Notes under the pieces: model-generated
The model's database searches: none
What the model was told of the DNA's origin: nothing
What the model saw: the letters and a program-made list of their open reading frames with translations, nothing else
Program-made: the position numbers and the translations under genes
Shown here: in pieces, positions 1,492-63,586 of the stretch
Layout of the letters: every line of letters starts with the position of its first letter
Position numbering within the stretch: the stretch's first letter is position 1
Assembly: GCA_964552755.1 (NCBI GenBank)
Contig: CAZKHX010000003.1
Location: 11,899 to 75,898, forward strand
Reading direction: 5' to 3'
Length of the DNA: 64,000 nt
Source: Candidatus Micrarchaeota archaeon
GTDB lineage: Archaea; Micrarchaeota; Micrarchaeia; Anstonellales; Bilamarchaeaceae

Positions 1492-2351
1492 CCCTTGTTT
1501 TTCCTCAGGGTGTAAATCCACTGGAACCGGAAGAAGGGATGGGAGCGGTCGTGCTCCGCGGAGAGGGTTTCGAAGCCGTTTTCTCCAAGCATTTTCTCGA
1601 ATTCGGGCTTTTCCAGGAACACTGCGGCCCATTTGCCCATTTTGTACTTGAGCTTTTCCGCCATCTCTTTCGGGATTTTGCCTTCCGCGGCAAGGGCATC
1701 CAGCTTCGCATCGTAGGCATCAAGGTGGTAGAGGCGCGTTTCCGGGTCGCGGACTTCCGGGTAGCGCATCATCTTGAATGCGAAAAGCCAGCGGTCCAGC
1801 ACATTTTCAAAACGGGTGGGGTTTTCGTTCGCTTCCCTTACCAGGTCGTCCCATGTGAGGTCGAGGTTTTCCTTCTGGAATATGGTTGTGGCGATGAGGG
1901 CGAGACCGTCCGGCTTCAGGAACCTGCGGATTTGCAGGAGGAGCTTCGGCTGCTCCCCATAATCTATGTTTATTATGGAATGGTCGGCTGCGATTATGTC
2001 GAACGGGCTTTCGGGGAGTTCCACTGTGAGCCAGTCGCCGATTATGATTTTTTCATCGGGGTTCTTTTCCGTGATGAGCTTTGAGGCGCTTTCCACCATT
2101 TCGGGGTTTATGTCCACAATCGTCACTTCGAAGCCGAGCGCATGGCCGAGCTCGCGCAGGGAGGGAGTTGCCCCGAGGATGAGGAGGTGCGGATTTTTCC
2201 TTTTTGAAATTTTGCGGAAGTGCTTCTCATAGATTTGCAGTTCCCCTTCGGAGGGGGTGAAAGGCGGGTTGAGCTTGCCCCACCATCCAAGCACGCCGTG
2301 CCATTTTTCCGTGTCCGCGGCTTTTTCTGCCATGCCAATCTCCTGTTTCAT
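1488..2351 (-). CDS. class I SAM-dependent methyltransferase (putative)
   Basis: ORF 1488..2576 was trimmed to the first Met after the upstream gene's stop at 2392. It has a Rossmann-like motif I region (HLLILGATPSLRELGHALGFEVTIVDINPEMVE) and later DIIAADHSI / LKPDGLALI motifs. An alternative start at 2333 (MAEK) is preceded by GGAG. Confidence 0.5.
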   Translation of the reverse strand: MKQEIGMAEKAADTEKWHGVLGWWGKLNPPFTPSEGELQIYEKHFRKISKRKNPHLLILGATPSLRELGHALGFEVTIVDINPEMVESASKLITEKNPDEKIIIGDWLTVELPESPFDIIAADHSIINIDYGEQPKLLLQIRRFLKPDGLALIATTIFQKENLDLTWDDLVREANENPTRFENVLDRWLFAFKMMRYPEVRDPETRLYHLDAYDAKLDALAAEGKIPKEMAEKLKYKMGKWAAVFLEKPEFEKMLGENGFETLSAEHDRSHPFFRFQWIYTLRKNKG

Positions 2352-2391
2352 GCGGGTGGAGCCTGCGCCGAATGCCGTCGCTGCGGCAGCC

Positions 2392-5300
2392 TCAGTTGAT
2401 GTAGCCGAAGGAGCGGAGCTCCTCGAGGGTTTCGTTGTCAAGGGGCGTGCCGTCATAGCCGTAGCCGCCGTACCAGCCGGGGGCGCCGTAGGCGGGCGGG
2501 GGCTCGGGGATTTCGGGCGCTGTGCCTTCCCCGCTGCCCGCATCCTGGGCGCCATGCTGCTGCTGCCAATCATCATAGGTGCCCCCGGTGCCGAACTGGC
2601 CCGCGCCTATCCATTGCTGCTGGGGAAATTGGGCGGACTGCAAAATGGCGATATATCCTGCAAGCATTGCATCAAGGTACGTAAGCATCGAGTATTCCGA
2701 GCCTGAGACGTTGTATTGCTCATCCGGGTCTTCCATCACATTGTAGAGCTCCACGTACGGGCTCAGCTGGTCGCTCCTCGGGCCGAGGGGCTGGGAAAGT
2801 ATGTATTTCCATTCATAGGTGCGGGCCATGTCCTGGCTCAGCCCGCCGAAGCGGTAGCTGGAGAAGACCTCGCTGCGCACCTCCTTCTCGGGCGCCTCCA
2901 TGGAATCGAAAAGGCTTACCCCATACGTATTGTTATAGCCCATCCCCATGAGCTGCGCAAGCGTGGGCGCGAGGTCCACCGTGCTTGCGAGCGTTGTGAG
3001 GCGGTTGCCCTGCGGCTCGGCGCCCGGCACGTAGATTACGTAGGGTACGTGGGTTGCGGTATCGTAGAGCTTGCGGTTCTCCGGGATGTTGCCGAAGTCG
3101 TCGCCCATCCCGTGGTCGGAAAGGAGGACGACTATTGTTTTGCCTTCTATGCCCTCGTCTTTGAGGGTTTGGAGCACGCGGCCCACCTGCCCGTCAACGT
3201 ATTCCACGCTGAGGGCATAGTTCTCGGTCACGTTCCTGCTTGCGCCTATGCCCGGCGGGTGGGCGTCGTAAAGGTGCATCCAGAAGAAAAATTTCCCGTC
3301 GCTGTGGTTCCTTATCCAGTCTATCGTGTAGTTCGCGGACATGCCGCCCCGGGTGCCCAGAGGGTAGCCGACGGCGCTTGAATCATAATCCTCGAACATC
3401 GGGCCGGTTGCGCAGGCGTGGAGGCTGAGGCCGCCGAAGCCCACGGTCGCCCCCGTGGAATAGCCGCTTTCGTTGAGCAGGTTGAGCAGGTTGTCGCCCG
3501 AGCGGGCGGCTATGCTGCCGCCGCCGTAATACCTGCCGGTCATCATTATGCTGTGGGAGGGGCAGGTGAACGTGAACGCGGTGTGCGCGTTCTCGAAAAG
3601 GAAGCCCTTTGCGGCTAGCGCGTCGATGTTCGTGGTATTTGCAAGGGAGTTTTCATTGTATGCGGAGACGTAGTCCGCGCGCGTGCAGTCTATTGTGATG
3701 AAGAGTATGTTGTAGCCGGTTGTGTCCGGGAGGGTGACTTTTGCCCCGGCCTCCGGCTCCAGCTCGGGCTCCTCGGGCTTCGGGCGGAGCAGGGAATGCC
3801 CGTCAAGCGTCGTGTCTTCGGGAAGGCCAAGCAGGTCGCGGAGCGTGGGGTTGATGTCCCGGAGCGCGGGCGTCCATTCCAAATCGATTACGCGGTTGGT
3901 GAAGAATACGCCTGTGGTCTGGTCCGGGTCGAGGGTGCAGTGGTCGCCGGACCATTTCTTCCAGTTGGGTTCCACTATCTCGGGCGGGACGCCTCCAAGC
4001 GAGGTCTGCCACGAGACGCGGTAGCCGGGGTTGAAGGAGATTATGAGGTCGGCGGCATGGTCCGTGTATGCTCCATGGTAGATGTCCTCGCGCTTCTGCA
4101 CCTTCGCGATTATCCTCTGGCCGGTTGCGGGGTCGCGCAGCTTTAGCAGCTTCTCCGCTATTTCATCGCGGAGCGCATCATATTCTTCTTCCGATACCGT
4201 GCCCTGCGACTCGCGGCCCTCGCGGTTAATGTAGATGTTTCCGAGGCCAAGGGAATACGCCTGCGTCTCATTCAGCAGGACGTCGTTCCAGAAAAGGCCC
4301 TTTTCTCCATAGAGGCTGTTGAGCTTGTAGTACTGGGTGTCCGCACCTGGCTTCTTGGTGAGGTAGCCGTTTTCATAGAGCCAGGTGTTGAGGTTGACCG
4401 CATAGCGGAATGGGTTGAATCCGTGGTCGCTCATCACTATTATTGTAGTATCATCATCTGCCTTTTCCATTACTTTTCCAAGCACTTCGTCCATGCGCTG
4501 GTAGATGCGGAGTATTTCGCCCTCATGCTTTTCGCGCTCGTCTTCGGGGATATAATAGTAATTCGGGTTCTCCGGGTCCATGTAGCGGTAGAATGTATGC
4601 TGGAGCGTATCGGTCTGGTAGAAGACGACCATCAGGAGGTCCGGCTCTTTTTCCATCTCTTCCAATACCAGCTTTTCCTTGTGCTCGAGTGTGCGGTAGG
4701 CGTCCTGCAGGAACACTGCCTCGTCTATTGCCTCATCATTCAGGGCCCAGGTATCATCGGCCCAGCCGACTGTCTTGTACATGCCGAGCTCCTGCGCGAC
4801 ATCTGCGGAATAGCCTTCGGGAGTGGAGATGCGGAAGAACGGCTCGCGCGGGTCCATGCTAACCGGCTGGAGATAGAGATAGAGCGGGTCCGCATCCACA
4901 AGATAGAAGCGGGCGGAGCCCTTGAGCTTTATTATGGGGTGGACGTCAAAGGAGAAGTCTGCCCAGTCGCTCCATTCGCCCTCGCGGAGCTCATATTCCC
5001 TGCCTCCAAAGGAGAGGGTCACGGAGTTGAAGGAAGTGCGCGTGATTGTCATGTTGATTGTGTAGCCCTGCGGGCCGTAGAGCAGGGCCTGTGCGGAATC
5101 GCCCTCGAAATGGACCGGGATGAAATTGCCGCCCATGAGGGTTTCGGCCTCCGGCGCGTCCTCAGCATAGATGTTGAAAGTGCCCCACGTGGCGCGGATG
5201 TCCGGGGTGCCGAGTCCGGAAATCATGTGGCCGCGGAAATCCTCCGCAGGGAAGGTTACGGGGTAGGTAATTATGCTGCTCCAGCCGCCATTGTCGCTTA

Positions 5301-27294: not shown

Positions 27295-27422
27295 GCTCCG
27301 ATAGTCTAGCCCGGTCTAGGATGTCGGCCTTTCGGCGAACCCTTTTTGGGCTGCCTAAAAGCGTTCACGGAAAAGGGCTCGAAAGAAAGCCGATGGCCCG
27401 GGTTCAAATCCCGGTCGGAGCA
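27295..27422 (+). tRNA. tRNA-Glu (anticodon UUC) with ~53-nt intron after position 37
   Basis: Hand-folded: acceptor GCTCCGA/TCGGAGC, D arm GTCT..GGAT, anticodon stem TCGGC/GCCGA, and loop CTTTCG[intron 27335-27387]A with anticodon TTC at 27331-27333. The T arm is CCGGG-TTCAAAT-CCCGG and the discriminator is A. No CCA is encoded. A T5 run follows at 27427-27431. Confidence 0.8.
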
Positions 27423-31981: not shown

Positions 31982-32824
31982 ATGAGGTTCACGTCGCCTA
32001 CATTCTCTGATTTGTACGGGGCAGACATAGAGGTGAAGAGGTTCCCGGACGGGGACTGCTACGTGCGGCTCCTCAGGCCGGAAAAGGGCCGCGGGGAAGC
32101 CTGCCTCCTCCACCGCCTATATCCTGGGCAGGACCAGTCGCTCATGCAGGCGGTGCTCATGCTAGGGGCAGTAAGCGAACTTGGCTACTCGCCCATTTTG
32201 GTTGCGCCCTACCTGCCATATTCCCGGCAGGACAAGGTTTTCAGGGAGGGGGAGGCAAAGAGCGCGGAGCTCGTGTGCAGGATGCTGAAGGATGCGGGCG
32301 CGGAGAAGCTCATCACCTTCGATTGCCACTTCCTCAAGAAGAAGGGCGAATTCGAATACGGAGGGCTGAAGATTGAAAACCTCTCCATGAACGAAGAGCT
32401 CGTGAAGGCTGCCGGGGAGAAGTTCGGCGGGCCTTTCGAAGTCATAAGCCCGGACATGGGGGCGCGCTACCTGGTAGAGGACTTCGGGGGCAAGAGCATG
32501 GAGAAAGAGCGCGGCGGGATGGCCGAAGGCGAAGAGGCCTACCGCGAGATAAAGGAAATGAAGGTGGAGGGCGACTTCAGGGGGAAGAGCGTGCTCATAC
32601 TCGACGACATGGTTTCAACCGGCTCAACGATGGTAAAGGCCGCGGAGAAGCTGAAGGGGGAGGGCGCCGCAAAGGTGATGTTCGCGGCAACGCACGGCTT
32701 CTTCCTCAAGGGCTCGCTGGAGAAGCTCAGGGCGCTCGGGGAGGTAATCGTCTCGGACAGCATCCCCTCGCCCGCATCTGAGGTTAGCATAAAGGAAAGC
32801 ATCGAGGCCGCCCTGCGCGGATGA
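31982..32824 (+). CDS. prs: ribose-phosphate pyrophosphokinase
   Basis: The PRPP-binding loop VLILDDMVSTGSTM and YLPYSRQDK are present. Confidence 0.85.
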   Translation: MRFTSPTFSDLYGADIEVKRFPDGDCYVRLLRPEKGRGEACLLHRLYPGQDQSLMQAVLMLGAVSELGYSPILVAPYLPYSRQDKVFREGEAKSAELVCRMLKDAGAEKLITFDCHFLKKKGEFEYGGLKIENLSMNEELVKAAGEKFGGPFEVISPDMGARYLVEDFGGKSMEKERGGMAEGEEAYREIKEMKVEGDFRGKSVLILDDMVSTGSTMVKAAEKLKGEGAAKVMFAATHGFFLKGSLEKLRALGEVIVSDSIPSPASEVSIKESIEAALRG

Positions 32825-33969
32825 TTTTGATGAAAATTGCATTCTTCACGGATACATACGTTCCCAACCGGGACGGCGTGGTTACTGCGCTGGTCAACTA
32901 CAAGCAGGAGCTGGAGAAGCTCGGGCACGAGGTGTACATATTCACCCCGGGCACGAAGAAGCAGAAGAAGGAGAACAGGGACAAGAAGGTCTACTATTTC
33001 ACGTCCGCCTCGTTCAAGCCATACCCGGACTACCGGCTCTCGCTGTTCCCGTTCCTTTCCGCGGTGAAGGCAGTGAAGGAGATAAAGCCGGACATAGTGC
33101 ATTCCCACGGGGTCGCGACCACCGGGCTGGCGGCCGTGCAGTGCTCGCGCAGCCTTAAGGTGCCTGCAATCGCGAGCTTCCATACCATGATCCCGCAGGC
33201 GACCCACTACCTCGCAAAGAAGGAGGATACGCAGAAGCTCCTGGAGAAGGTCGCATGGAAATACCTCAGGTGGTACTATTCCCTCTTCCGCATTGTCACC
33301 GTGCCCAGCGAGCATACGGCAAAGATACTCCGGCAGCACGGGATTGAGAATACGCGCGTGCTCCCCATGGGCATCAGCGTGAAGTACTATGCGAACGGTG
33401 ACGGCAAGAAGGTGCGCGACAAATACTCACTGGGCAAAAAGAAAATCGTGCTGCACGTGGGTAGGATGGTGGAGGAGAAGAACATCGGCATGCTCATAAA
33501 CGAGGCGCAGTCCATAGTGAACAAGAACCCGGACATACGGTTCGTGATGGTGGGCGGCGGACCCGCGGAGGAAAGCTTCCGCAGCATGGCGAGAATGAAG
33601 GGCGTGGATGAGTATTTCGTATTCACGGGCTTCGTGCCAAGGGAGGAACTGCCCGATTACTATGCCGCGGCGGACGCATTCGCATTCCCCTCGACCTTCG
33701 ACACGCAGGGGCTTGTTGCGCTCGAGGCGATGGCCGCGGGCGTGCCCGTGGTGGTGCAGGCGGACTCTGCGGCCGCAGAGATTGTTGAGGACGGGGTGAA
33801 CGGCTTCACTTTCAAAAGCCCGATTGATTTCAGGGAGAAAATCCTTGCCGCGGTCGCGGGCAAGGGCAGGATGTCAGAAGCGGCAAGTAAAAAGGCCGCG
33901 GAATACTCCAAGAGCAGGCGCACTGAGGCGCTTGTGCGGCTCTACGAATCTATACTTTCATCTCCTTGA
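32821..33969 (+). CDS. GT4-family (GT-B fold) glycosyltransferase
   Basis: MKIAFFTDTYVPNRDGV, the C-terminal FAFPSTFDTQGLVALEAMAAGVPVV (E-x7-E region) and VEDGVNGF are present. Confidence 0.75.
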   Translation: MILMKIAFFTDTYVPNRDGVVTALVNYKQELEKLGHEVYIFTPGTKKQKKENRDKKVYYFTSASFKPYPDYRLSLFPFLSAVKAVKEIKPDIVHSHGVATTGLAAVQCSRSLKVPAIASFHTMIPQATHYLAKKEDTQKLLEKVAWKYLRWYYSLFRIVTVPSEHTAKILRQHGIENTRVLPMGISVKYYANGDGKKVRDKYSLGKKKIVLHVGRMVEEKNIGMLINEAQSIVNKNPDIRFVMVGGGPAEESFRSMARMKGVDEYFVFTGFVPREELPDYYAAADAFAFPSTFDTQGLVALEAMAAGVPVVVQADSAAAEIVEDGVNGFTFKSPIDFREKILAAVAGKGRMSEAASKKAAEYSKSRRTEALVRLYESILSSP

Positions 33970-36508
33970 CCATTTCCTCGAATTCCTTCCACGTCTTTAT
34001 GGAGACCGAGCCGGCCTGCAGCTCAGCCTTAAGCAGGCTCGGGATGGACTCCCCGTTGGAAAGCTGGTCGTAGAGCTCCTCCTTTTCCGCGGTGCCCTCC
34101 ACCAGTATTATGTTCGGCCCCTTGGGGATTGACTTTAGCACGTGCATTATCGTGGTCTCGGGGCCCTCGTGCATATGCACATACATCTCCTGGCCCATGA
34201 TTGTTATCTTGCTGTCATAGGGATTGCCCTTGCTGACCCCGGTGAACGGAACTGCGTTGTTGATGCAGATGTCCCTTAGCTTCCTGAACAGCGCAAGGTA
34301 GCGGGCACTCCTCCCGGACTCCTTCTCCCATGCAACGGGGCAATAGTAGCTCAGTTCCTTCTTCAGCATCCCCTGCGCAATCAGGCTGTCGAGGATGAAT
34401 TCCAGGTTGTAGTCGCTGATGAAGATGTGCCTGCCCTGGTGGAGCATGTCCCTGAAGCCGCTCTTCACCTCGGAGAGCTTGAGCGGCGTGTCCTTCCATT
34501 TGTATTTCCTGTCTACCTTGTCGAAAATCTTCAGCAGGGTGTCCTTCTTCAGGGGTATCTTATTGGTTTCCTGCGGCGGGAAGTCCGGGATGTCCAGGCC
34601 GTATATCGCCGCCTCCTCCCTGCGGAGCGCCATGCCGATGCCCACTATTATGAGCGCAAGGAGCACGACCCCGATTGCAAGCGGGTCGGTGAATATGGAT
34701 GCCTGCGCGGTCTTTTCCAATACTATTGTCTCTTCATAGCCGCCGAGCGTGAACGTGAACTCGTGCCTGCCGTCCGGCAGGGAATACCCGCGCTCATGCA
34801 GGTCGACCTCCAGGTAGCTGGAGTCCATGAACGTGTACGTCCCGTACTGGCCGTTGTCCACGCTCACTTTCACTTCGCTGAGCGCAAGCGGGGCGTCATC
34901 AGCCATTACGGTATACCTGTATATGTCATAGCGGAAAATAGGGGCCTGCGCAACTATGCGCACCGCCGCTGCGCGCATGTATCCGCGCGCATATGTGTTC
35001 CCGTCCTGGTCCTGCACGTTGAGTATGTAGTTGCCGGGCACCAGGCTGAAAGTGTACGGTGTGCTGGGCTCGGAATTCAGGCTCACGGGCGCGCTGCCCA
35101 CGCCCTTCCTGTCCACCTCTCCGCTTATGTTCGTGATTACGAGGAACAGCCTCTTCTCCTCCGGCTCCGGCTCGCGCAGCTGGATGAGCAGGTCCGTTCC
35201 TGTGGGCTCCACCTCCCCGGGGAGCACGGTGTGGCCCGCCGGGCTGAACACCTCGCCCCTTGCCTTCTTCTGCAGGTGCACTACATTCATGAAGCCGATG
35301 CCAAGCGTTGAATTGTACCCCACTATTTTCATGTACTTGTCATCGCCCTCAAAAGTGCTTGTGAAGAGCTCGAGGTATTCCTCCCCGCCCTCCAGCGCGG
35401 AGAAGTGGGCCGCGGTTGCCGAGGGGGTCAGCCACGGGTCAGTGAGCACCATGTACGCGACATCCGAAGCGGCCTGCTGCCCGTTTTCCCACCCGCCGTC
35501 CAGCGTCTGCGGGACCACGAGAAGGAATCCCTTCTCGCATTTCAGTGCGCTCATCGCGCCCCAGAACATCCAGCTGCCGTCCAGCCCGCTGACCTGGTAA
35601 AGCGGGTTCTTGAGGGTAGTGTCCGAAGAGGGCGTGAGCTGCACCTGCTTGTTTATGGTGAGCTTCCTGTCTTTCAGCGCGAGGAAGCCGGCCGGGGAAT
35701 TCACCACCGAGCCGCCCTCGCTCATCATCTTGTCAAAGGCCTGCCCTACGTAGAGCACCGTCACGCCGCGGTCCATCAATGAGTAAAGCTTCGGGTATTC
35801 CCCTGTGATGAGCTGCTCCGGCACGTAGCCGCTCGGCACTATGAGAAGCGCGCCCATCGGGAGGCTGTCCACCTCAGCGGAGCTGATTTCATTCACCGGG
35901 ATGCTGTATGCGCCAAGGTAAAGCTCGAGGCTCTTGTAGAACGGGTCGAAGCTTTCCGCCTGGTAGCGGCTGCTGCGCAGCACGTAGACCGCGGAGGGCG
36001 AGACTGAATCATAGACATTTGCGGCAATCCCTATCTCGGGCACGTCTGTGGATGAAACGAACAATTTCGCATAGCCCGTATGGTACGGGTAGCGGTAGTT
36101 CTCGGGGTCACTCGCTGTCATTATGTCCGATTCCACCACCATGGAGGAAAGTGACGGGAAGAATGCCTCCCCGCTGGACATCTCCTGCGGGAAAACAAAT
36201 GTCTGCGCATAAAGGAACGCTGCGATTATCGCGAGGAGCAGCACCGCCACCGCGGCTCCGATTTTCTGCACCGTCCTGCTCGCCATAAGCGGCCTCGTGG
36301 GCGGCTTCTCCTCCTCTTCGGCCTTCGCCTTCTTCTCCGCCTTCGGCTTCCTCCTGAAAAGCGAAAGCAGGGCCTTCCTCAGCTCCTCAACCGGGGTCTT
36401 CTCCACCACGCGGTACTTGCTCTCGTAGGAGAACCTTCTCTTTATCTCAAACCGGAAGTCCTTCCCCTTCTTTGATATCCTCAAGTCCTTAAGTGCCATG
36501 CAGCTCAC
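33950..36508 (-). CDS. 852-aa bitopic membrane protein, unknown function (operon member 5)
   Basis: A basic N-terminal cytoplasmic segment is followed by TM1 (IGAAVAVLLLAIIAAFLYA). A ~500-aa extracytoplasmic region comes next, then TM2 (AIGVVLLALIIVGIGMAL) and a ~230-aa cytoplasmic C-domain. It overlaps the upstream gene by 4 nt. Confidence 0.5.
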   Translation of the reverse strand: MSCMALKDLRISKKGKDFRFEIKRRFSYESKYRVVEKTPVEELRKALLSLFRRKPKAEKKAKAEEEEKPPTRPLMASRTVQKIGAAVAVLLLAIIAAFLYAQTFVFPQEMSSGEAFFPSLSSMVVESDIMTASDPENYRYPYHTGYAKLFVSSTDVPEIGIAANVYDSVSPSAVYVLRSSRYQAESFDPFYKSLELYLGAYSIPVNEISSAEVDSLPMGALLIVPSGYVPEQLITGEYPKLYSLMDRGVTVLYVGQAFDKMMSEGGSVVNSPAGFLALKDRKLTINKQVQLTPSSDTTLKNPLYQVSGLDGSWMFWGAMSALKCEKGFLLVVPQTLDGGWENGQQAASDVAYMVLTDPWLTPSATAAHFSALEGGEEYLELFTSTFEGDDKYMKIVGYNSTLGIGFMNVVHLQKKARGEVFSPAGHTVLPGEVEPTGTDLLIQLREPEPEEKRLFLVITNISGEVDRKGVGSAPVSLNSEPSTPYTFSLVPGNYILNVQDQDGNTYARGYMRAAAVRIVAQAPIFRYDIYRYTVMADDAPLALSEVKVSVDNGQYGTYTFMDSSYLEVDLHERGYSLPDGRHEFTFTLGGYEETIVLEKTAQASIFTDPLAIGVVLLALIIVGIGMALRREEAAIYGLDIPDFPPQETNKIPLKKDTLLKIFDKVDRKYKWKDTPLKLSEVKSGFRDMLHQGRHIFISDYNLEFILDSLIAQGMLKKELSYYCPVAWEKESGRSARYLALFRKLRDICINNAVPFTGVSKGNPYDSKITIMGQEMYVHMHEGPETTIMHVLKSIPKGPNIILVEGTAEKEELYDQLSNGESIPSLLKAELQAGSVSIKTWKEFEEMVKEMKV

Positions 36509-37233
36509 TTGACAAATTCCAGGAACCCTCCTTTCACAAGCTCGTCCAGCACCTGCTCAATCCGGGCCTCCGGGACCCTGTACATCCGGGAGAAGTCCGA
36601 GATGGAGATGGAGCCGCCGTGGTCGGCAATCCACCCCTGCAGCTTCGTCTTCAGCACGCCGTCGGACATCCCCTGGAGGGCCTCCAGCTTGAGCTTCAGC
36701 TCGTCGTTCTCGTTCTTCAGGTCGTAGTTCTCTTTCGTGAGGCCCTTCACCTGCCTCTTCAGGATGATTGAGGACCTGCGCAGGTCCTCGGCATCCTTCC
36801 TGAGCGAATCGTACATGTCGTAGAGCTTCTTGTAGTCGCCGGTTGCATATTCGTCCATCTCCTTCACCGTCTGCTCGATGAGCTGGTAGAGGAGCTCGTT
36901 CTTTATGTTGTAGCTGTCGCCCAGCATGCTCATGATATTGAGGAAATAGCGGATTACGTTCAGCCTGCGCCGTGTGGGAGAGGCGCCCGGCGGGATTGTG
37001 TAAATCACCTCCACCTCGTCCTTGCTGAAGCGCGTGACCGAGAACACGAACGGCTTCTTGTTTATGTCACGGCTTTCAACATATGCGACGCTCACTCCGT
37101 CCCTGTCCTTGGAAATCTTCAGGAAAGAGGCCTGCCTTAGCGTGCTTGCGAGCTTCTCGGGCTTTGCCCTCATTTCCGCCTGTATCTTGAACCCGTCCAC
37201 CTTCGGTTCCGGCACTGTTTCCGGCATCTTCAC
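36505..37233 (-). CDS. cytoplasmic coiled-coil protein with C-terminal wHTH-like module (operon member 4)
   Basis: It has a heptad-rich segment LRKDAEDLRRSSIILKRQVKGLTKENYDLKNENDELKLKLEAL. The C-terminus ISISDFSRMYRVPEARIEQVLDELVKGGFLEFVK is wHTH-like. It overlaps both neighbours by 4 nt. Confidence 0.45.
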   Translation of the reverse strand: MKMPETVPEPKVDGFKIQAEMRAKPEKLASTLRQASFLKISKDRDGVSVAYVESRDINKKPFVFSVTRFSKDEVEVIYTIPPGASPTRRRLNVIRYFLNIMSMLGDSYNIKNELLYQLIEQTVKEMDEYATGDYKKLYDMYDSLRKDAEDLRRSSIILKRQVKGLTKENYDLKNENDELKLKLEALQGMSDGVLKTKLQGWIADHGGSISISDFSRMYRVPEARIEQVLDELVKGGFLEFVK

Positions 37234-37724
37234 CTACCTCCCTTTTTCCTCTTCGGAGCTGCAGCTGGTTTCGGCGCGGCTGGCTTTGCGGCCGTTTTCC
37301 GCGCAGGCTTCCCTTCAGTCGCCTTTGGCTCCAACGCAACAGCTCGTCCCGCTCGCTGTCGCTCCTGCGGCGCGCCCTCGAGCGCGGGCACGTAGTTGAG
37401 TATGGAAAGCGCAAGTATCATCACCGCAAGTATGAACGAGAAGCATATCATCTCCAGCTGGAAGCCGCCGCCGAGCAGCAGGGGCAGCAGCGGGAACCCA
37501 ATTGCAACGATTACTGCAAAGGTCGCATAGAGCACCAGCTTCTTCTCGAAGCTTTTCCTCTTCCCCCTGTACGCCTCAAGGTGCTCGTCGCACACCACGA
37601 GCTCGTTGCCTTTCAGTATCCCGAGCTTCTTCTTGCCTTCCCTTATGGTGCTGAGCACCTGGTCGTCCTTGAGGGGAGTACCCTTCGCCACTTCCTTTTC
37701 GCAAAGCCAGCATACCCTTGCCAT
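37230..37724 (-). CDS. small membrane protein with N-terminal zinc-knuckle and K/A/P-rich tail (operon member 3)
   Basis: MARVCWLCEKE...VCDEHLE is followed by two TM helices and a tail AVALEPKATEGKPARKTAAKPAAPKPAAAPKRKKGG. Confidence 0.45.
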   Translation of the reverse strand: MARVCWLCEKEVAKGTPLKDDQVLSTIREGKKKLGILKGNELVVCDEHLEAYRGKRKSFEKKLVLYATFAVIVAIGFPLLPLLLGGGFQLEMICFSFILAVMILALSILNYVPALEGAPQERQRAGRAVALEPKATEGKPARKTAAKPAAPKPAAAPKRKKGGR

Positions 37725-37728
37725 CAGC

Positions 37729-39303
37729 TCAATCCTCCAGGTAAACCTGGTCTATCTCCTTGCCCTGCAGGTCGGACTTCTTCTTGTCCGCGGCAGTGAA
37801 TATGTTGATGATGATTGTGTCCTCTATGCCGATTTCCTTCAGGAAGGCAGTTATGTTGGAGCGCTCCACGCCGAACCTCTCCAGCAGTATGATGAAGGAG
37901 ACTATGTCCAGGTGCCTGTTCTTCGTGTCGAACAGCCTCGTTATCTCCTCAATCTTGTCCTCGCCGAGCCCGAATTCGAGCATCCTCCTCCTCAAGTCGT
38001 CCTTCTGGAACGAAACCGACCTAGCCACATCCATCTCCTCCTTCTGCTCCTTGGTGAGGACGCCCTCCAGCTCGAGAAAGAGCTCCCTTACCGGCTCCTC
38101 GCCCTCTATCTTGTCTATCAGGAAAGTCGAGGGGTAGGGCTCGGCGGTGGCGAATGCCATGTTCACCGCAGTCTGGCCGACTCCCAGCCTCGCAATCTCG
38201 TTGCGCATGAAGCTGCTGAAGTTGAGCGTGCCCTGCACGTAGTCAAGGAAGCGCTCGAACTTTATCTTCAGTATGAAGGTGCTGCCAACGTTCGAGAAGA
38301 TTGCCTCGCTGATGTCCGTTGGGTTCTGCGACGCGACAATCAGCCCGAAATTGTACTTCCTGCCTTCGCGGACAATCATCACCGCGTCGCTGTTGTCGTC
38401 CTTCGCAATCTTCCACGCCTCATCCAGCACTATGATGAGGCGGAGGCCCTTTGCCTTTGCCCAGCCCGCGGCTCGCATCCTCTCCTTTATGAACTGGAGC
38501 ACCGCAAGCGCGCCCAGCGCCCTGAAGCGCTCATCGGGGAGGCCGCTCAGGTCGAAGGAAACGAGGCCGGAAGTGGTAAGCTCGTCAAGGCTCACTGTGC
38601 TCTGGCTCGCGAAATAGTCCTCGCCCGGCTTCGTGAACTCCTTGAGCCGGTAAATCGCATTGTCCAGCTCCGCCGGGAATTCGTACGCGCCCATGGACGC
38701 CTGCTCCTCAAGCAGCTTCACGACGTCCTTCAGGGTGGGCGGGGTAAGCGGCCGGCCGAGCTCGTCCCTCTGCTCCTTCACGTCCATCCTGTACTTGTTG
38801 TTCGCATATGCCTTCTCGATTGCCTGCTCGGTAAGCCTCCTCTGCTCGGGGTACTGCTCTATGTTGGTGAGTATCGCAAGGGTGCGCATCACCTGCTTTA
38901 TCCTGTCATACGGCTTCATGCCGCCGAGGTCGAGCAGGTTGAGGTGCGAGCCCTTCCCGAGCGAGATTACGCGGCCCCCGGTCTGCCTCACCCAGTCCTT
39001 GTATTCCCCCGCCCAGTCGATTATGAGGGCGTTGGAGTTCCACACGAAGGATGCGCGCGTAAGGAACGTCTTGATGAAATATGACTTGCCCGAGCCGGTA
39101 ATCCCTACCGCGCAGATGTGCGGGTTGGTGAGCGCCTGGTAGGACCAGTAGAAGGGCGAATGCAGCATCTTTGTGCGGCCCACATAAATGGAATCCGTGG
39201 GGTCGTCGCACAGGGCCCTGAACGGCGGCTCCGGCGGGTGCACTAATATGTTCCTCTTCGCAAGTTCCTTGTTGGAGATTTTTGCGATGTTAAGGTGCCC
39301 CAT
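37729..39303 (-). CDS. VirB4/TrbE/TraC-like (AAA_10, HerA-FtsK superfamily) ATPase (operon member 2)
   Basis: It has Walker A NPHICAVGITGSGKSYF, Walker B LRLIIVLDEAWKI, and the VirB4-style box VREGRKYNFGLIVASQNPTDI. HLNLLDLGG resembles the NPxD substrate-site motif. Confidence 0.7.
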   Translation of the reverse strand: MGHLNIAKISNKELAKRNILVHPPEPPFRALCDDPTDSIYVGRTKMLHSPFYWSYQALTNPHICAVGITGSGKSYFIKTFLTRASFVWNSNALIIDWAGEYKDWVRQTGGRVISLGKGSHLNLLDLGGMKPYDRIKQVMRTLAILTNIEQYPEQRRLTEQAIEKAYANNKYRMDVKEQRDELGRPLTPPTLKDVVKLLEEQASMGAYEFPAELDNAIYRLKEFTKPGEDYFASQSTVSLDELTTSGLVSFDLSGLPDERFRALGALAVLQFIKERMRAAGWAKAKGLRLIIVLDEAWKIAKDDNSDAVMIVREGRKYNFGLIVASQNPTDISEAIFSNVGSTFILKIKFERFLDYVQGTLNFSSFMRNEIARLGVGQTAVNMAFATAEPYPSTFLIDKIEGEEPVRELFLELEGVLTKEQKEEMDVARSVSFQKDDLRRRMLEFGLGEDKIEEITRLFDTKNRHLDIVSFIILLERFGVERSNITAFLKEIGIEDTIIINIFTAADKKKSDLQGKEIDQVYLED

Positions 39304-39312
39304 GGAAAAACC

Positions 39313-40119
39313 TCAGAACACCTCTGCCTCCAGCTCCCTGGGGCCGGGCGGCATTACCTTCTCCCATTCGAAGCACTTCATCATCTCGTCGGCAGTGAGC
39401 GGCTCCACCTGCACGTTGAGGGAGTTCGCAAGCGTAATCCTCAGCTCACGGACCTGCGCTTTCGTGGCGGCGACCGCAGCTTCCTTGCTCACCCCGCTCG
39501 CGGTAGTCATCGCATACGCGAGCACGCCCATGGGCCGTATTCCCTTTGTGAGCTTCGCAAGCTGGGTGTCCCACATGCCCACTTCGCGCTCGTAGCGGTC
39601 TATCTTGAGCACGTCCGGGTCCGACTTGTCCCTCTCCCTCGCGAGCCGGAGCTGGGCCTCTGCCTTCTTCTCCTCTATTTTCCTCCTCTTCTGGCCCACG
39701 TCCTCGGCATACATCATGTAGGAAATCTTGGCCACGTATTTTATGTTGGAGATTGCCCTCTCGAAATCCTCGTTGTAGGCAATGTTCTGCTCCATGCTCC
39801 TCTCGGTCGCAGACTCGAAAATCCTTATCCCGAGGAACGCGGAGGCGTAGTACATGTTCCCGACCTTCTTGATTATCACGTCCTGCGCGGGAGGGATTTC
39901 ATAGCCCGTATCGGTGAGCATTACGGTATTCGTGCGCTGGGTCACCATGGGTATGATCACGTATCCGTATTTGAGGACAAGCACCGCAACCATGCTCCCA
40001 AGGCCTGCGAGTATTGCGCCGAAGAGGCTGGGGATTCCGCTGCCTGAAGCGAGCGCGAACACCGCCCCGAGCACCCCAACGCCGGCCGCCCCGTATGCTA
40101 TCTGCTTTTGGGTTATCAT
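39313..40119 (-). CDS. membrane protein with two N-terminal TM helices plus soluble domain (operon member 1; possible VirB3/VirB4-N-terminal analogue)
   Basis: The TM helices are AAGVGVLGAVFALASG and LFGAILAGLGSMVAVLVL. The first ATG is at 40119. In-frame GTG at 40128 and TTG at 40131 lie ~27-30 nt from the TATA-like TTTATAAAG at 40154-40162. Confidence 0.5.
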   Translation of the reverse strand: MITQKQIAYGAAGVGVLGAVFALASGSGIPSLFGAILAGLGSMVAVLVLKYGYVIIPMVTQRTNTVMLTDTGYEIPPAQDVIIKKVGNMYYASAFLGIRIFESATERSMEQNIAYNEDFERAISNIKYVAKISYMMYAEDVGQKRRKIEEKKAEAQLRLARERDKSDPDVLKIDRYEREVGMWDTQLAKLTKGIRPMGVLAYAMTTASGVSKEAAVAATKAQVRELRITLANSLNVQVEPLTADEMMKCFEWEKVMPPGPRELEAEVF

Positions 40120-40162
40120 CGGGAACACCAACGGTTCCCATTTGCATCTAACGTTTATAAAG

Positions 40163-46175: not shown

Positions 46176-46282
46176 TGCAGGGGGCAGGATTTGAACCTGC
46201 GTAGGCCCTGAGGCCACAGGATTTCCAAGGCATTCTCAGCCGCTTAAGTCCTGCGCATTTGGCCGTGCTCTGCAACCCCTGC
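46176..46282 (-). tRNA. tRNA-Leu (anticodon UAA) with ~20-nt intron after position 37 and long variable arm
   Basis: Hand-folded from the reverse complement: acceptor GCAGGGG/CCCCTGC, anticodon stem CAGGA/TCCTG, and loop CTTAAG[intron]A. The variable arm is TGGCCTCAGGGCCTAC, the T arm GCAGG-TTCAAAT-CCTGC and the discriminator A. A TATA-like TTTTATTTT (46312-46320) lies upstream. Confidence 0.8.
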
Positions 46283-63491: not shown

Positions 63492-63586
63492 CCCGCTATA
63501 GCTCAACGGTAGAGCGGTCGGCTGTAGCCTGTTTACTGCTAAAAGCAGAAACCGACAGGTTCCCGGTTCAAATCCGGGTGGCGGGA
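63492..63586 (+). tRNA. tRNA-Tyr (anticodon GUA) with ~23-nt intron after position 37
   Basis: Hand-folded: acceptor CCCGCTA/TGGCGGG (C1:G72, as in archaeal tRNA-Tyr), D arm GCTC-AACGGTA-GAGC, and anticodon stem GTCGG/CCGAC. The loop is CTGTAG[intron 63528-63550]A, the T arm CCCGG-TTCAAAT-CCGGG and the discriminator A. No CCA is encoded. Confidence 0.8.

Follow-up and report, generated by a model that had tools for sequence, protein, structure and literature searches.

A conserved five-gene operon of Micrarchaeota encodes a VirB4/CedB-like ATPase with a putatively detached N-terminal domain and may form the core of a pilus or translocation machine

Micrarchaeota are tiny, host-dependent DPANN archaea. 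To our knowledge, no molecular machine has been identified by which DPANN archaea acquire what their reduced genomes cannot make. We analyzed a 64,000-nucleotide stretch of a Candidatus Micrarchaeota genome (positions 11,899 to 75,898 of contig CAZKHX010000003.1, assembly GCA_964552755.1; here called the window) and confirmed five minus-strand open reading frames (ORFs), A to E, at positions 33950-40131. Profile comparisons suggest that A and B together make up a split protein of the VirB4/CedB type, and we propose that the five genes encode the core of a machine derived from a type IV secretion system (T4SS).

An initial annotation, made from the DNA alone, had described five tightly packed ORFs behind a TATA-like box and had taken them for one operon. 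We obtained the same coordinates and spacing and likewise read the genes as a single operon. In the longest ORFs, A and B are separated by 9 nt and B and C by 4 nt, while C/D and D/E overlap by 4 nt each. Public gene calls on identical contigs use ATG starts slightly downstream, giving proteins of 268, 240, and 849 aa and gaps of 2 to 5 nt. The TATA-like box is a putative promoter for the operon. Its spacing of ~27 nt from the TTG codon of A fits a leaderless or near-leaderless archaeal transcript, and most of 74 related loci have a TATA-like motif 31 to 50 nt ahead of A (55 of the 74 have one within -100 to +20). At the other end, E and a convergent glycosyltransferase gene share 20 nt at their 3' ends, which marks the end of the operon and leaves no room for a terminator between the two genes.

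We found that B is the only one of the five proteins that matches curated families in Pfam and NCBIfam. Its best Pfam match is DUF87 (1e-15), and it also matches AAA_10 (8e-11; 41.9 bits against a gathering threshold of 27.5) and the TraG P-loop domain (2e-9; 37 bits against 25.8). The highest-scoring NCBIfam models are VirB4-like CD1110 (77 bits, 1e-21), CedB (70 bits), CedD (69 bits), and VirB4 of the Mycoplasma integrative and conjugative element (ICE; 68 bits). VirB4_CagE (52 bits, 5e-14) and TraC (50 bits, 9e-14) score lower, and the HerA models score lowest, at 36 to 43 bits, against HerA cut-offs of 800 to 970; a genuine HerA encoded on another contig (L154) reaches 184 bits on the HerA model. 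B, which begins ~35 residues ahead of its P-loop, contains a VirB4-type C-terminal ATPase domain with Walker A and Walker B motifs and lacks both the HAS-barrel of HerA and the N-terminal domain of VirB4. A HAS-barrel would not fit in B because Walker A already begins at residue 65. By these matches, B is a VirB4/CedB-like P-loop ATPase of the FtsK-HerA superfamily, which agrees with its initial assignment as VirB4-like rather than HerA-like. Since its NCBIfam scores lie below the equivalog cut-offs, it belongs with VirB4 and the T4SS at the superfamily level only, and since they lie about 10-fold below, it is orthologous to no named protein. For example, the cut-off of the CedB model NF041017 is 700 bits, whereas B reaches 70, over the ATPase part only. 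Nor does B fit the FtsK/SpoIIIE translocases with their motor and gamma domains: in Pfam, FtsK_SpoIIIE (PF01580) gives an E value of 0.02 and 14.8 bits against a gathering threshold of 24, over the P-loop only. PADLOC and PHROGs returned only generic superfamily or ATPase matches to B (HerA, DndH, and mad8 in PADLOC), and its PDB sequence matches include HerA defence complexes. Neither a VirD4 coupling protein nor a relaxase was matched by any of the five proteins, B reaching only an E value of 0.047 against Pfam TrwB_AAD_bind.

Some relatives of B have unusual gene structures. Two orthologues (P0122, 1026 aa; P0123, 1196 aa) carry inteins with LAGLIDADG homing endonucleases (Intein_splicing, 1e-22; LAGLIDADG_3, 3e-22) at two different sites, one just past Walker B (~residue 297) and one in or just past the P-loop (~residues 70-85). 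In locus L117, the ATPase is called as two ORFs, at 1789-3396 (535 aa) and 3380-3703 (107 aa), the second of which corresponds to the C-terminal extension particular to this family; either the extension is naturally split off here, or the break stems from a frameshift or sequencing error.

Protein A has an N-terminal transmembrane (TM) hairpin (residues 11-29 and 35-53) followed by a soluble domain with an alpha/beta part and a helical hairpin. It has no match in Pfam, NCBIfam, PHROG, or PADLOC, and its 340 homologues are all annotated as hypothetical. A always lies directly upstream of B. In an exhaustive representative search we found fused relatives of ~880 aa, in which the ATPase domain begins near residue 285. 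BLASTP of A against a fused ATPase gave nothing; only profile-profile comparison worked. With hhalign, the A family matched the N-terminal 250 residues of the fused ATPases from end to end, including the TM hairpin (probability 87%, E value 4e-6), and the N-terminal 295 residues alone over ~230 columns (87.8%, 3e-6). Adding two more distant A-like proteins raised this to 93.5% (2e-7). Of six control comparisons, the one of A with C gave 26% over a 28-column match at the TM hairpins, and the other five stayed below 1% (A with the ATPase part, D, or E; the N-terminal domain with D or C).

We also found that the isolated N termini of the fused proteins match the N-terminal domain of CedB (6.5e-10, 9.6e-8, and 7e-4) and that of the Mycoplasma ICE VirB4 (4.5e-6 to 1e-3). 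The N-terminal domains of CedB and CedD are structural homologues of the VirB4 N-terminal domain (PMC11868833). Direct searches with A were less informative: its profile returned only coiled-coil noise from PDB sequences, and its AlphaFold2 (AF2) model is weak (predicted local distance difference test score [pLDDT], 64). The top five of 350,542 chains compared with that model by Foldseek are TrwK/VirB4 of R388, at E values of 0.07 to 0.27, which are not significant. We read A as a detached, membrane-anchored N-terminal domain of the VirB4/CedB type that would anchor the ATPase in a TrsD- or VirB3-like role. With the fused relatives as Rosetta-stone evidence, we conclude that A and B probably constitute a split VirB4/CedB-type protein, with A providing in trans the membrane anchor and the N-terminal domain and B the ATPase.

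Fused relatives of 861 to 913 aa lie in small clusters at L171 (6659-10742) and L172 (6187-12221). In L171, the fused ATPase gene stands directly behind two genes with a Pfam CedA1 domain, the only place where we saw CedA1-domain genes. A SIR2_2 gene also lies near this cluster. In L172, a tyrosine integrase gene directly follows the fused ATPase, which suggests that this cluster is a mobile version of the system.

Table 1. Positions of the operon genes, their predicted domains and motifs, and further features, in window numbering
Feature	Residues	Coordinates	Strand	Remarks
Gene A		39313-40131	-	272 aa; 268 aa from the ATG at 40119; TTG start in the longest ORF
Gene B		37729-39303	-	524 aa
B, Walker A	65-74	39082-39111	-	
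B, Walker B	289-297	38413-38439	-	
B, REGRKYNFGLIVASQNPTD box	312-330	38314-38370	-	REGRKY...QNPTD
B, family-specific C-terminal extension	405-524	37732-38091	-	~120 aa, common to relatives
Gene C		37230-37724	-	164 aa
C, zinc ribbon	N-terminal	37545-37724	-	CxxC...CxxH
Gene D		36505-37233	-	242 aa
D, winged helix	~195-242	36508-36651	-	C-terminal
Gene E		33950-36508	-	852 aa
E, ectodomain		34709-36154	-	Alpha/beta domain, then ~4 Ig/macroglobulin-like beta-sandwiches
E, cytoplasmic winged-helix + alpha/beta domain		33953-34561	-	
TATA-like box TTTATAAAG		40154-40162	-	TTTATAAA, palindromic; directly after the purB stop codon
GT4 glycosyltransferase gene		32821-33969	+	Overlaps the end of E at 33950-33969
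tRNA		27295-27422	+	Rfam; 128 nt
tRNA		46176-46282	-	Rfam; 107 nt
tRNA		63492-63586	+	Rfam; 95 nt

The remaining three proteins belong, by our searches, to no known family, and with them we define three partner families. C follows its zinc ribbon with a TM hairpin (residues 67-85 and 90-108) and a K/A/P-rich basic tail, and it has no match in Pfam, NCBIfam, or PHROG. D begins with an alpha/beta domain, continues as a coiled coil (~residues 115-192), and ends in a winged helix, which matches that of CdvB (2xvc) at 6e-5; the coiled coil gives generic matches to ZapB, YabA, and DivIC that are below all cut-offs. E no longer appears bitopic, as it had first been described: we found two TM helices (~residues 77-103 and ~609-628), so that both termini are cytoplasmic, with a cytoplasmic N-terminal tail, a 480-aa ectodomain between the helices, and a cytoplasmic C-terminal domain. 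No part of E has a sequence family in Pfam or NCBIfam. Its AF2 model has a mean pLDDT of 79, with the ectodomain above 90, and Foldseek matched the ectodomain to CD109, C3, alpha2-macroglobulin, and the biofilm adhesins Bap, RbmA, and SiiE (E values of 6e-8 to 2e-5 over ~280 columns). From this model, E is a candidate envelope-spanning collar or adhesin. We dropped the idea that its cytoplasmic domain is homologous to topologically similar proteins of two distant loci (L089 and L090), for which hhalign gave 0.7%.

To follow the operon in other genomes, we scanned one genome per species for the ATPase with an 8-sequence profile; a 19-sequence alignment was too divergent and was not used. Among the more than 1,100 homologues of B, the top 120 share 67 to 100% identity with it, and every named one of these 120 is from Micrarchaeota, Micrarchaeia, or Bilamarchaeaceae. 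We then compared gene order and identity by tblastn with the five window proteins in the 80 best loci of the 470 species genomes that encode an ATPase relative; these 80 are almost all labelled Micrarchaeota. The order A-B-C-D-E was kept in 80 of 80 loci, wherever the contig reaches, with median intergenic distances of 0 to 10 nt. Identity was 65 to 82% for B, 46 to 76% for A, 35 to 59% for D, 29 to 75% for C (N-terminal ~116 aa only), and 25 to 48% for E. The N-terminal ~116 aa of C are kept in all of these loci, C was seen in Micrarchaeota-type contigs only, and E is always the last gene of the operon. Two public records labelled Woesearchaeota (L078) and Pacebacteria (P0420) also hold genes closely homologous to those of the operon (B 66% and E 41% identical); most likely these labels reflect mis-binned contigs of metagenome-assembled genomes.

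The genes that flank the operon vary between Micrarchaeota lineages. In the window they are pyrB/pyrI, prs, and a GT4 glycosyltransferase gene on one side and purB, AMMECR1, and an HD protein gene on the other, and the GC content of the operon genes (0.56 to 0.59) is the same as that of the remainder of the window. Housekeeping flanks and a matching composition had both been noted initially. Because the order is constant, identities form gradients, and the flanks differ, the operon is, as far as comparison of the loci can tell, chromosomal and vertically inherited rather than an island. As regards other features of the window, Rfam identified three tRNAs whose spans exceed the 71-position model (Table 1), and ARAGORN recovered only one of the three, with an odd anticodon call. 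Introns are frequent in archaeal tRNA genes, and these three tRNAs probably contain introns.

The initial annotation had seen no pilin gene, which holds for the window; some relatives, however, carry VirB2-type pilin genes beside the operon. A pilin hidden Markov model (HMM) located them immediately ahead of A in L073 and L084 and, in L071, 3.4 kb past E on its downstream side; in L117 the order on one strand is A-B-C-D-E-pilin-pilin. The L073 pilin passes the gathering threshold of Pfam T4SS_pilin (28.2 bits against 26.6; E value, 2e-6) and is just under that of TrbC/VirB2 (25.9 bits against 27.9). A profile of eight pilins had a single PDB match, the R388 pilin TrwL/VirB2 (1e-3). Scanning metagenomes for relatives of these pilins gave 264 contigs, often with tandem copies. 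A paralogue of C lies directly upstream of two pilin genes in L106 and L109, and E-like paralogues lie near pilins in L132 and L136. On one contig of 629,424 bp (L115, the same as L070), the operon and a pilin gene are ~320 kb apart.

Several other observations concern the pilins. A paralogue in L071 (16889-17500) has a ~90-aa cysteine-rich C-terminal tail on a VirB2-like core and may be a specialised or tip pilin. On L154 (1909-7430), the genuine HerA gene (NF040819, 3e-54) is followed 3.5 kb downstream by a gene for a VirB2-type pilin, with genes for proteins of 693 and 445 aa in between; this linkage recalls the HerA genes in Ted loci. A cluster of 247-aa proteins that had been taken for pilins was dropped, as these are PAC2 proteins linked through antisense ORFs, and a recurrent 578-aa polytopic neighbour of the pilins was ruled out as VirB6, being a Na+/H+ exchanger.

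More distant relatives show which genes travel together. L086 and L087 encode ATPases 41% identical to B, next to pheT, and keep A, B, and D (HMM E values of 1e-60 to 1e-79; 1e-60 to 1e-66 for D, next to B) with no C or E. In L087, a gene for a 317-aa polytopic membrane protein stands directly upstream of A. L089 and L090 encode ATPases ~30% identical to B, and the L089 protein cluster holds a member labelled Marsarchaeota. The gene order in both is pilin (131/136 aa), polytopic protein (340/346 aa), A-like protein (5e-17), ATPase, and a D-like protein whose HMM matches Micrarchaeota D at 9e-8; then follow a protein with an ectodomain between two TM helices, small hairpin proteins, and, in L089 only, a second P-loop ATPase. 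The pilin here has a signal peptide and 2 TM helices and gives sub-threshold matches to Pfam T4SS_pilin/TrbC. C was absent from the distant A-B-D clusters, and E was not detectable in them. Because distant relatives keep the A-ATPase pair, and most of them also D, without C and E, the conserved core is probably the trio A-B-D, with C and E as Micrarchaeota-specific additions. The polytopic proteins of L087 to L090 (~320 to 350 aa) form one family, which is plausibly of the VirB6/CedA/TedA type; it has no Pfam or PDB match, and its identity as VirB6 is therefore unproven.

We compared the operon with known systems of which it shares some features. Like the Ced system of Sulfolobales (CedA, CedA1, CedA2, CedB, and CedD/CedE), it is chromosomal, relaxase-less, archaeal, and apparently T4SS derived. 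CedB is among the best named models for B and is the best one for relatives of B; the fused relatives connect to Ced both by their CedB-like N-terminal domain and, in one case, by their place behind CedA1-domain genes. In both systems the VirB4 function would be spread over two polypeptides, CedB and CedD in Ced (PMC11868833) and A and B here. The split differs, however: in Ced it is between two paralogous ATPases, whereas here it would be between the N-terminal domain and the ATPase. Moreover, we detected no CedA-like polytopic protein (6 to 7 TM helices) and no CedA1/CedA2 partner in the operon; A, C, and E have no Ced matches in NCBIfam or Pfam, the pilins are of the VirB2/T4SS_pilin type, and C, D, and E have no Ced counterpart. 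The Ted system of Thermoproteales (TedA, VirB6-like; TedB, VirB4; TedC, VirB2-like pilin) likewise combines a VirB4-type ATPase with a VirB2-like pilin that has a signal peptide, and in both systems the components can be scattered over the chromosome (PMC9905601). In contrast, TedB is a full-length VirB4, and for the operon we detected neither a TedA homologue nor Rad50, HerA, or ParA neighbours.

The T4SS of the MPF-FATA class and of Patescibacteria (VirB4 with TrsD, PrgI/VirB3, VirB6, and VirB2-like pilins) offers a parallel for A. A stand-alone, VirB4-N-terminus-related protein, TrsD, beside VirB4 is known in monoderm and Patescibacteria T4SS (PMC12102498); we liken A to it by description. 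The Patescibacteria systems are also chromosomal, widespread, relaxase-less, and found in ultra-small episymbionts, with multiple VirB2 paralogues (PMC12102498). They belong to another domain of life with another envelope, though, and we found no VirB6 or VirB8 homologues here, while only the archaeal system has C, D, and E. With VirB3-VirB4 (e.g., TrwM-TrwK of R388), the operon shares a two-helix anchor and an N-terminal domain that tethers a Walker-type ATPase, hexameric there and predicted to be so here; it differs in that the ATPase domain is a separate gene with a ~120-aa family-only C-terminal extension, and the structural similarity is not significant. Searches of the accessible literature returned no description of the operon or of VirB4/VirB2-type genes in Micrarchaeota. 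The only DPANN case that we found is a giant nanohaloarchaeal SPEARE protein with a VirB4/TraG-like domain and a different architecture (PMC10266531).

Taken together, these data suggest that the operon, which is fixed in the chromosome and passed on vertically, supplies the cytoplasmic-membrane core of a pilus or translocation machine. This machine would derive from a T4SS, resemble Ced/Ted, and run on a split VirB4 motor. We put the probability of this reading at roughly 60%. An envelope translocation machine of a possibly host-dependent archaeon had been proposed from the start and is still plausible. The proposal that it is a novel system stands in part. C, D, and E are without family, as had been said of all four partners of B; A, by contrast, proved recognisable, and it and the linked pilins tie the system to the conjugation and Ced/Ted families that none of the partners had seemed to match. 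In the wider family, VirB2-type pilins and a polytopic protein even stand beside A-B. Judging by its sequences, we place the system within the T4SS/Ced/Ted superfamily, as a divergent branch and not as something categorically new.

As to assembly, direction of transport, and substrate, we infer the following. A would tether an oligomer of B to the membrane. ATP hydrolysis by B would extract VirB2-type pilin subunits from the membrane and polymerise them into a hollow pilus, and/or would drive a macromolecule through the envelope; depending on the Micrarchaeota genome, the pilins would come from genes beside the operon or at other places. Two candidate adaptors for substrates or partners are D, as a coiled-coil dimer that carries a winged helix, and E, through its cytoplasmic winged-helix domain. 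C, a zinc-ribbon hairpin protein whose paralogues flank pilin genes, may aid in pilin handling, and the Ig-domain ectodomain of E may span or decorate the envelope as a collar or adhesin. By analogy, the substrate might be DNA, as in Ced/Ted import (PMC9905601), or host-derived macromolecules, as proposed for relaxase-less Patescibacteria T4SS (PMC12102498).

Several findings weigh against this proposal. B falls about 10-fold short of every curated NCBIfam cut-off. The link from A to the VirB4 N-terminal domain runs through profile-profile comparison and an intermediate family, with a poor AF2 model and no significant Foldseek match. The 64-kb window holds no VirB2-type pilin; pilin genes directly adjoin the operon in ~4 of ~160 loci, and most pilin genes lie among housekeeping genes (SOD, PAC2, and Na+/H+ exchanger). 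Nor does the window encode a VirB6/CedA/TedA-like polytopic protein: the HMM of the polytopic family finds none there or in the Micrarchaeota loci, and the polytopic ORFs that we identified in the window are UbiA, TMEM175, and an H+-PPase. The ~1.3 Mb of flanking sequence from Micrarchaeota likewise yielded no polytopic homologue; a VirB6-like protein may be encoded elsewhere or be too divergent for detection. The cluster also lacks a coupling protein and a relaxase, as do most Patescibacteria T4SS and Ced/Ted (PMC9905601, PMC12102498). Finally, the near-universal presence of the operon, the 65 to 82% identity of B, and the housekeeping neighbours would equally fit a core cell-cycle function.

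A different view is that the ATPase assembles or exports a surface structure of a non-conjugative type, for example E as a host adhesin or docking complex, and that the linkage to pilins is incidental. E is the sole large surface-exposed component, is always in the operon, and has an adhesin-like stack of Ig/macroglobulin domains, and most pilin genes are unlinked. Cryo-electron tomography of the DPANN archaeon ARM-1 showed nanotubes between host and symbiont and a 21-nm barrel in the symbiont envelope at which they dock, the composition of both being unknown (PMC11329633). Against this view, the distant A-B-D clusters lack E, which means that the conserved core can do without it, and the same-strand order A-E-pilin-pilin in L117 is hard to call incidental. 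We regard this explanation as unlikely.

The conservation of the operon raises the idea of a core cell-cycle machine, in which a membrane-tethered FtsK/HerA-like DNA pump would serve segregation or division, D would be a DNA or divisome adaptor, and E would be an envelope-remodelling partner. The operon is near-universal, vertically inherited, and highly conserved among housekeeping genes of a reduced genome; inteins, which some B orthologues carry, are characteristic of ATPases that are essential and conserved; D has a winged helix similar to that of CdvB, and its coiled coil weakly matches ZapB, DivIC, and YabA; and a VirB6-like channel was not found. However, those coiled-coil matches are generic and below all cut-offs, FtsK_SpoIIIE on B is under threshold, and A shares homology with the N-terminal domain of VirB4/CedB. 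In several genomes, the operon has pilin genes and C paralogues in physical linkage with it, and relatives lie in clusters with a pilin and a polytopic protein. On balance, a pump of this kind seems improbable to us.

We give very little credence to a remnant of an integrated conjugative plasmid or ICE, in keeping with the initial annotation. Members of the ATPase family do lie near integrases in other archaea (L090 and L172), but in Micrarchaeota the same operon recurs at 80 of 80 species loci, its flanks are housekeeping genes, its identities grade as vertical descent would have it, and there is no composition shift. We saw neither an integrase nor a relaxase gene inside the cluster or next to it, and biosynthetic genes separate it from the nearest tRNAs, which lie at distances of 6.5 kb and 6 kb. 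A HerA-type repair helicase or anti-phage HerA module, to which the DUF87 domain ("HerA central domain"), the generic HerA, DndH, and mad8 matches in PADLOC, and the HerA defence complexes among the PDB matches might point, is similarly remote, as B shares the ATPase superfamily with HerA but has low HerA scores below any equivalog level and no HAS-barrel, we found no NurA, Mre11, Rad50, SIR2, or nuclease partner, all four partners are PADLOC-negative, and they include membrane proteins such as the membrane-anchored A.

A bolder possibility is that the operon and unlinked VirB2-type pilins form an essential domesticated T4SS, a conduit on the symbiont side that takes up host DNA, nucleotides, or other macromolecules, with the E ectodomain forming the 21-nm envelope collar or docking barrel of ARM-1 (PMC11329633). 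We offer this tentatively and consider it rather doubtful. The operon is a concrete candidate for the barrel and nanotubes; the supplements of that paper make no mention of DUF87, HerA, or VirB4. If true, the conduit would be an independently evolved archaeal counterpart of the T4SS that Patescibacteria require for epibiotic growth.

For the biology of these archaea, the five genes and the pilins provide a concrete, testable candidate for the machine by which DPANN archaea acquire material from neighbours or a host, and a strong one for the exchange of DNA or other large molecules between Micrarchaeota and neighbouring cells. The T4SS-derived system that we propose would extend the theme of domesticated conjugation, known from Ced/Ted, from TACK archaea to DPANN, and would parallel the essential T4SS of ultra-small Patescibacteria. 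It would also represent a new build of the VirB4 motor, in which the N-terminal domain and membrane anchor are a separate gene, with a probable core trio, A-B-D, that extends beyond Micrarchaeota.

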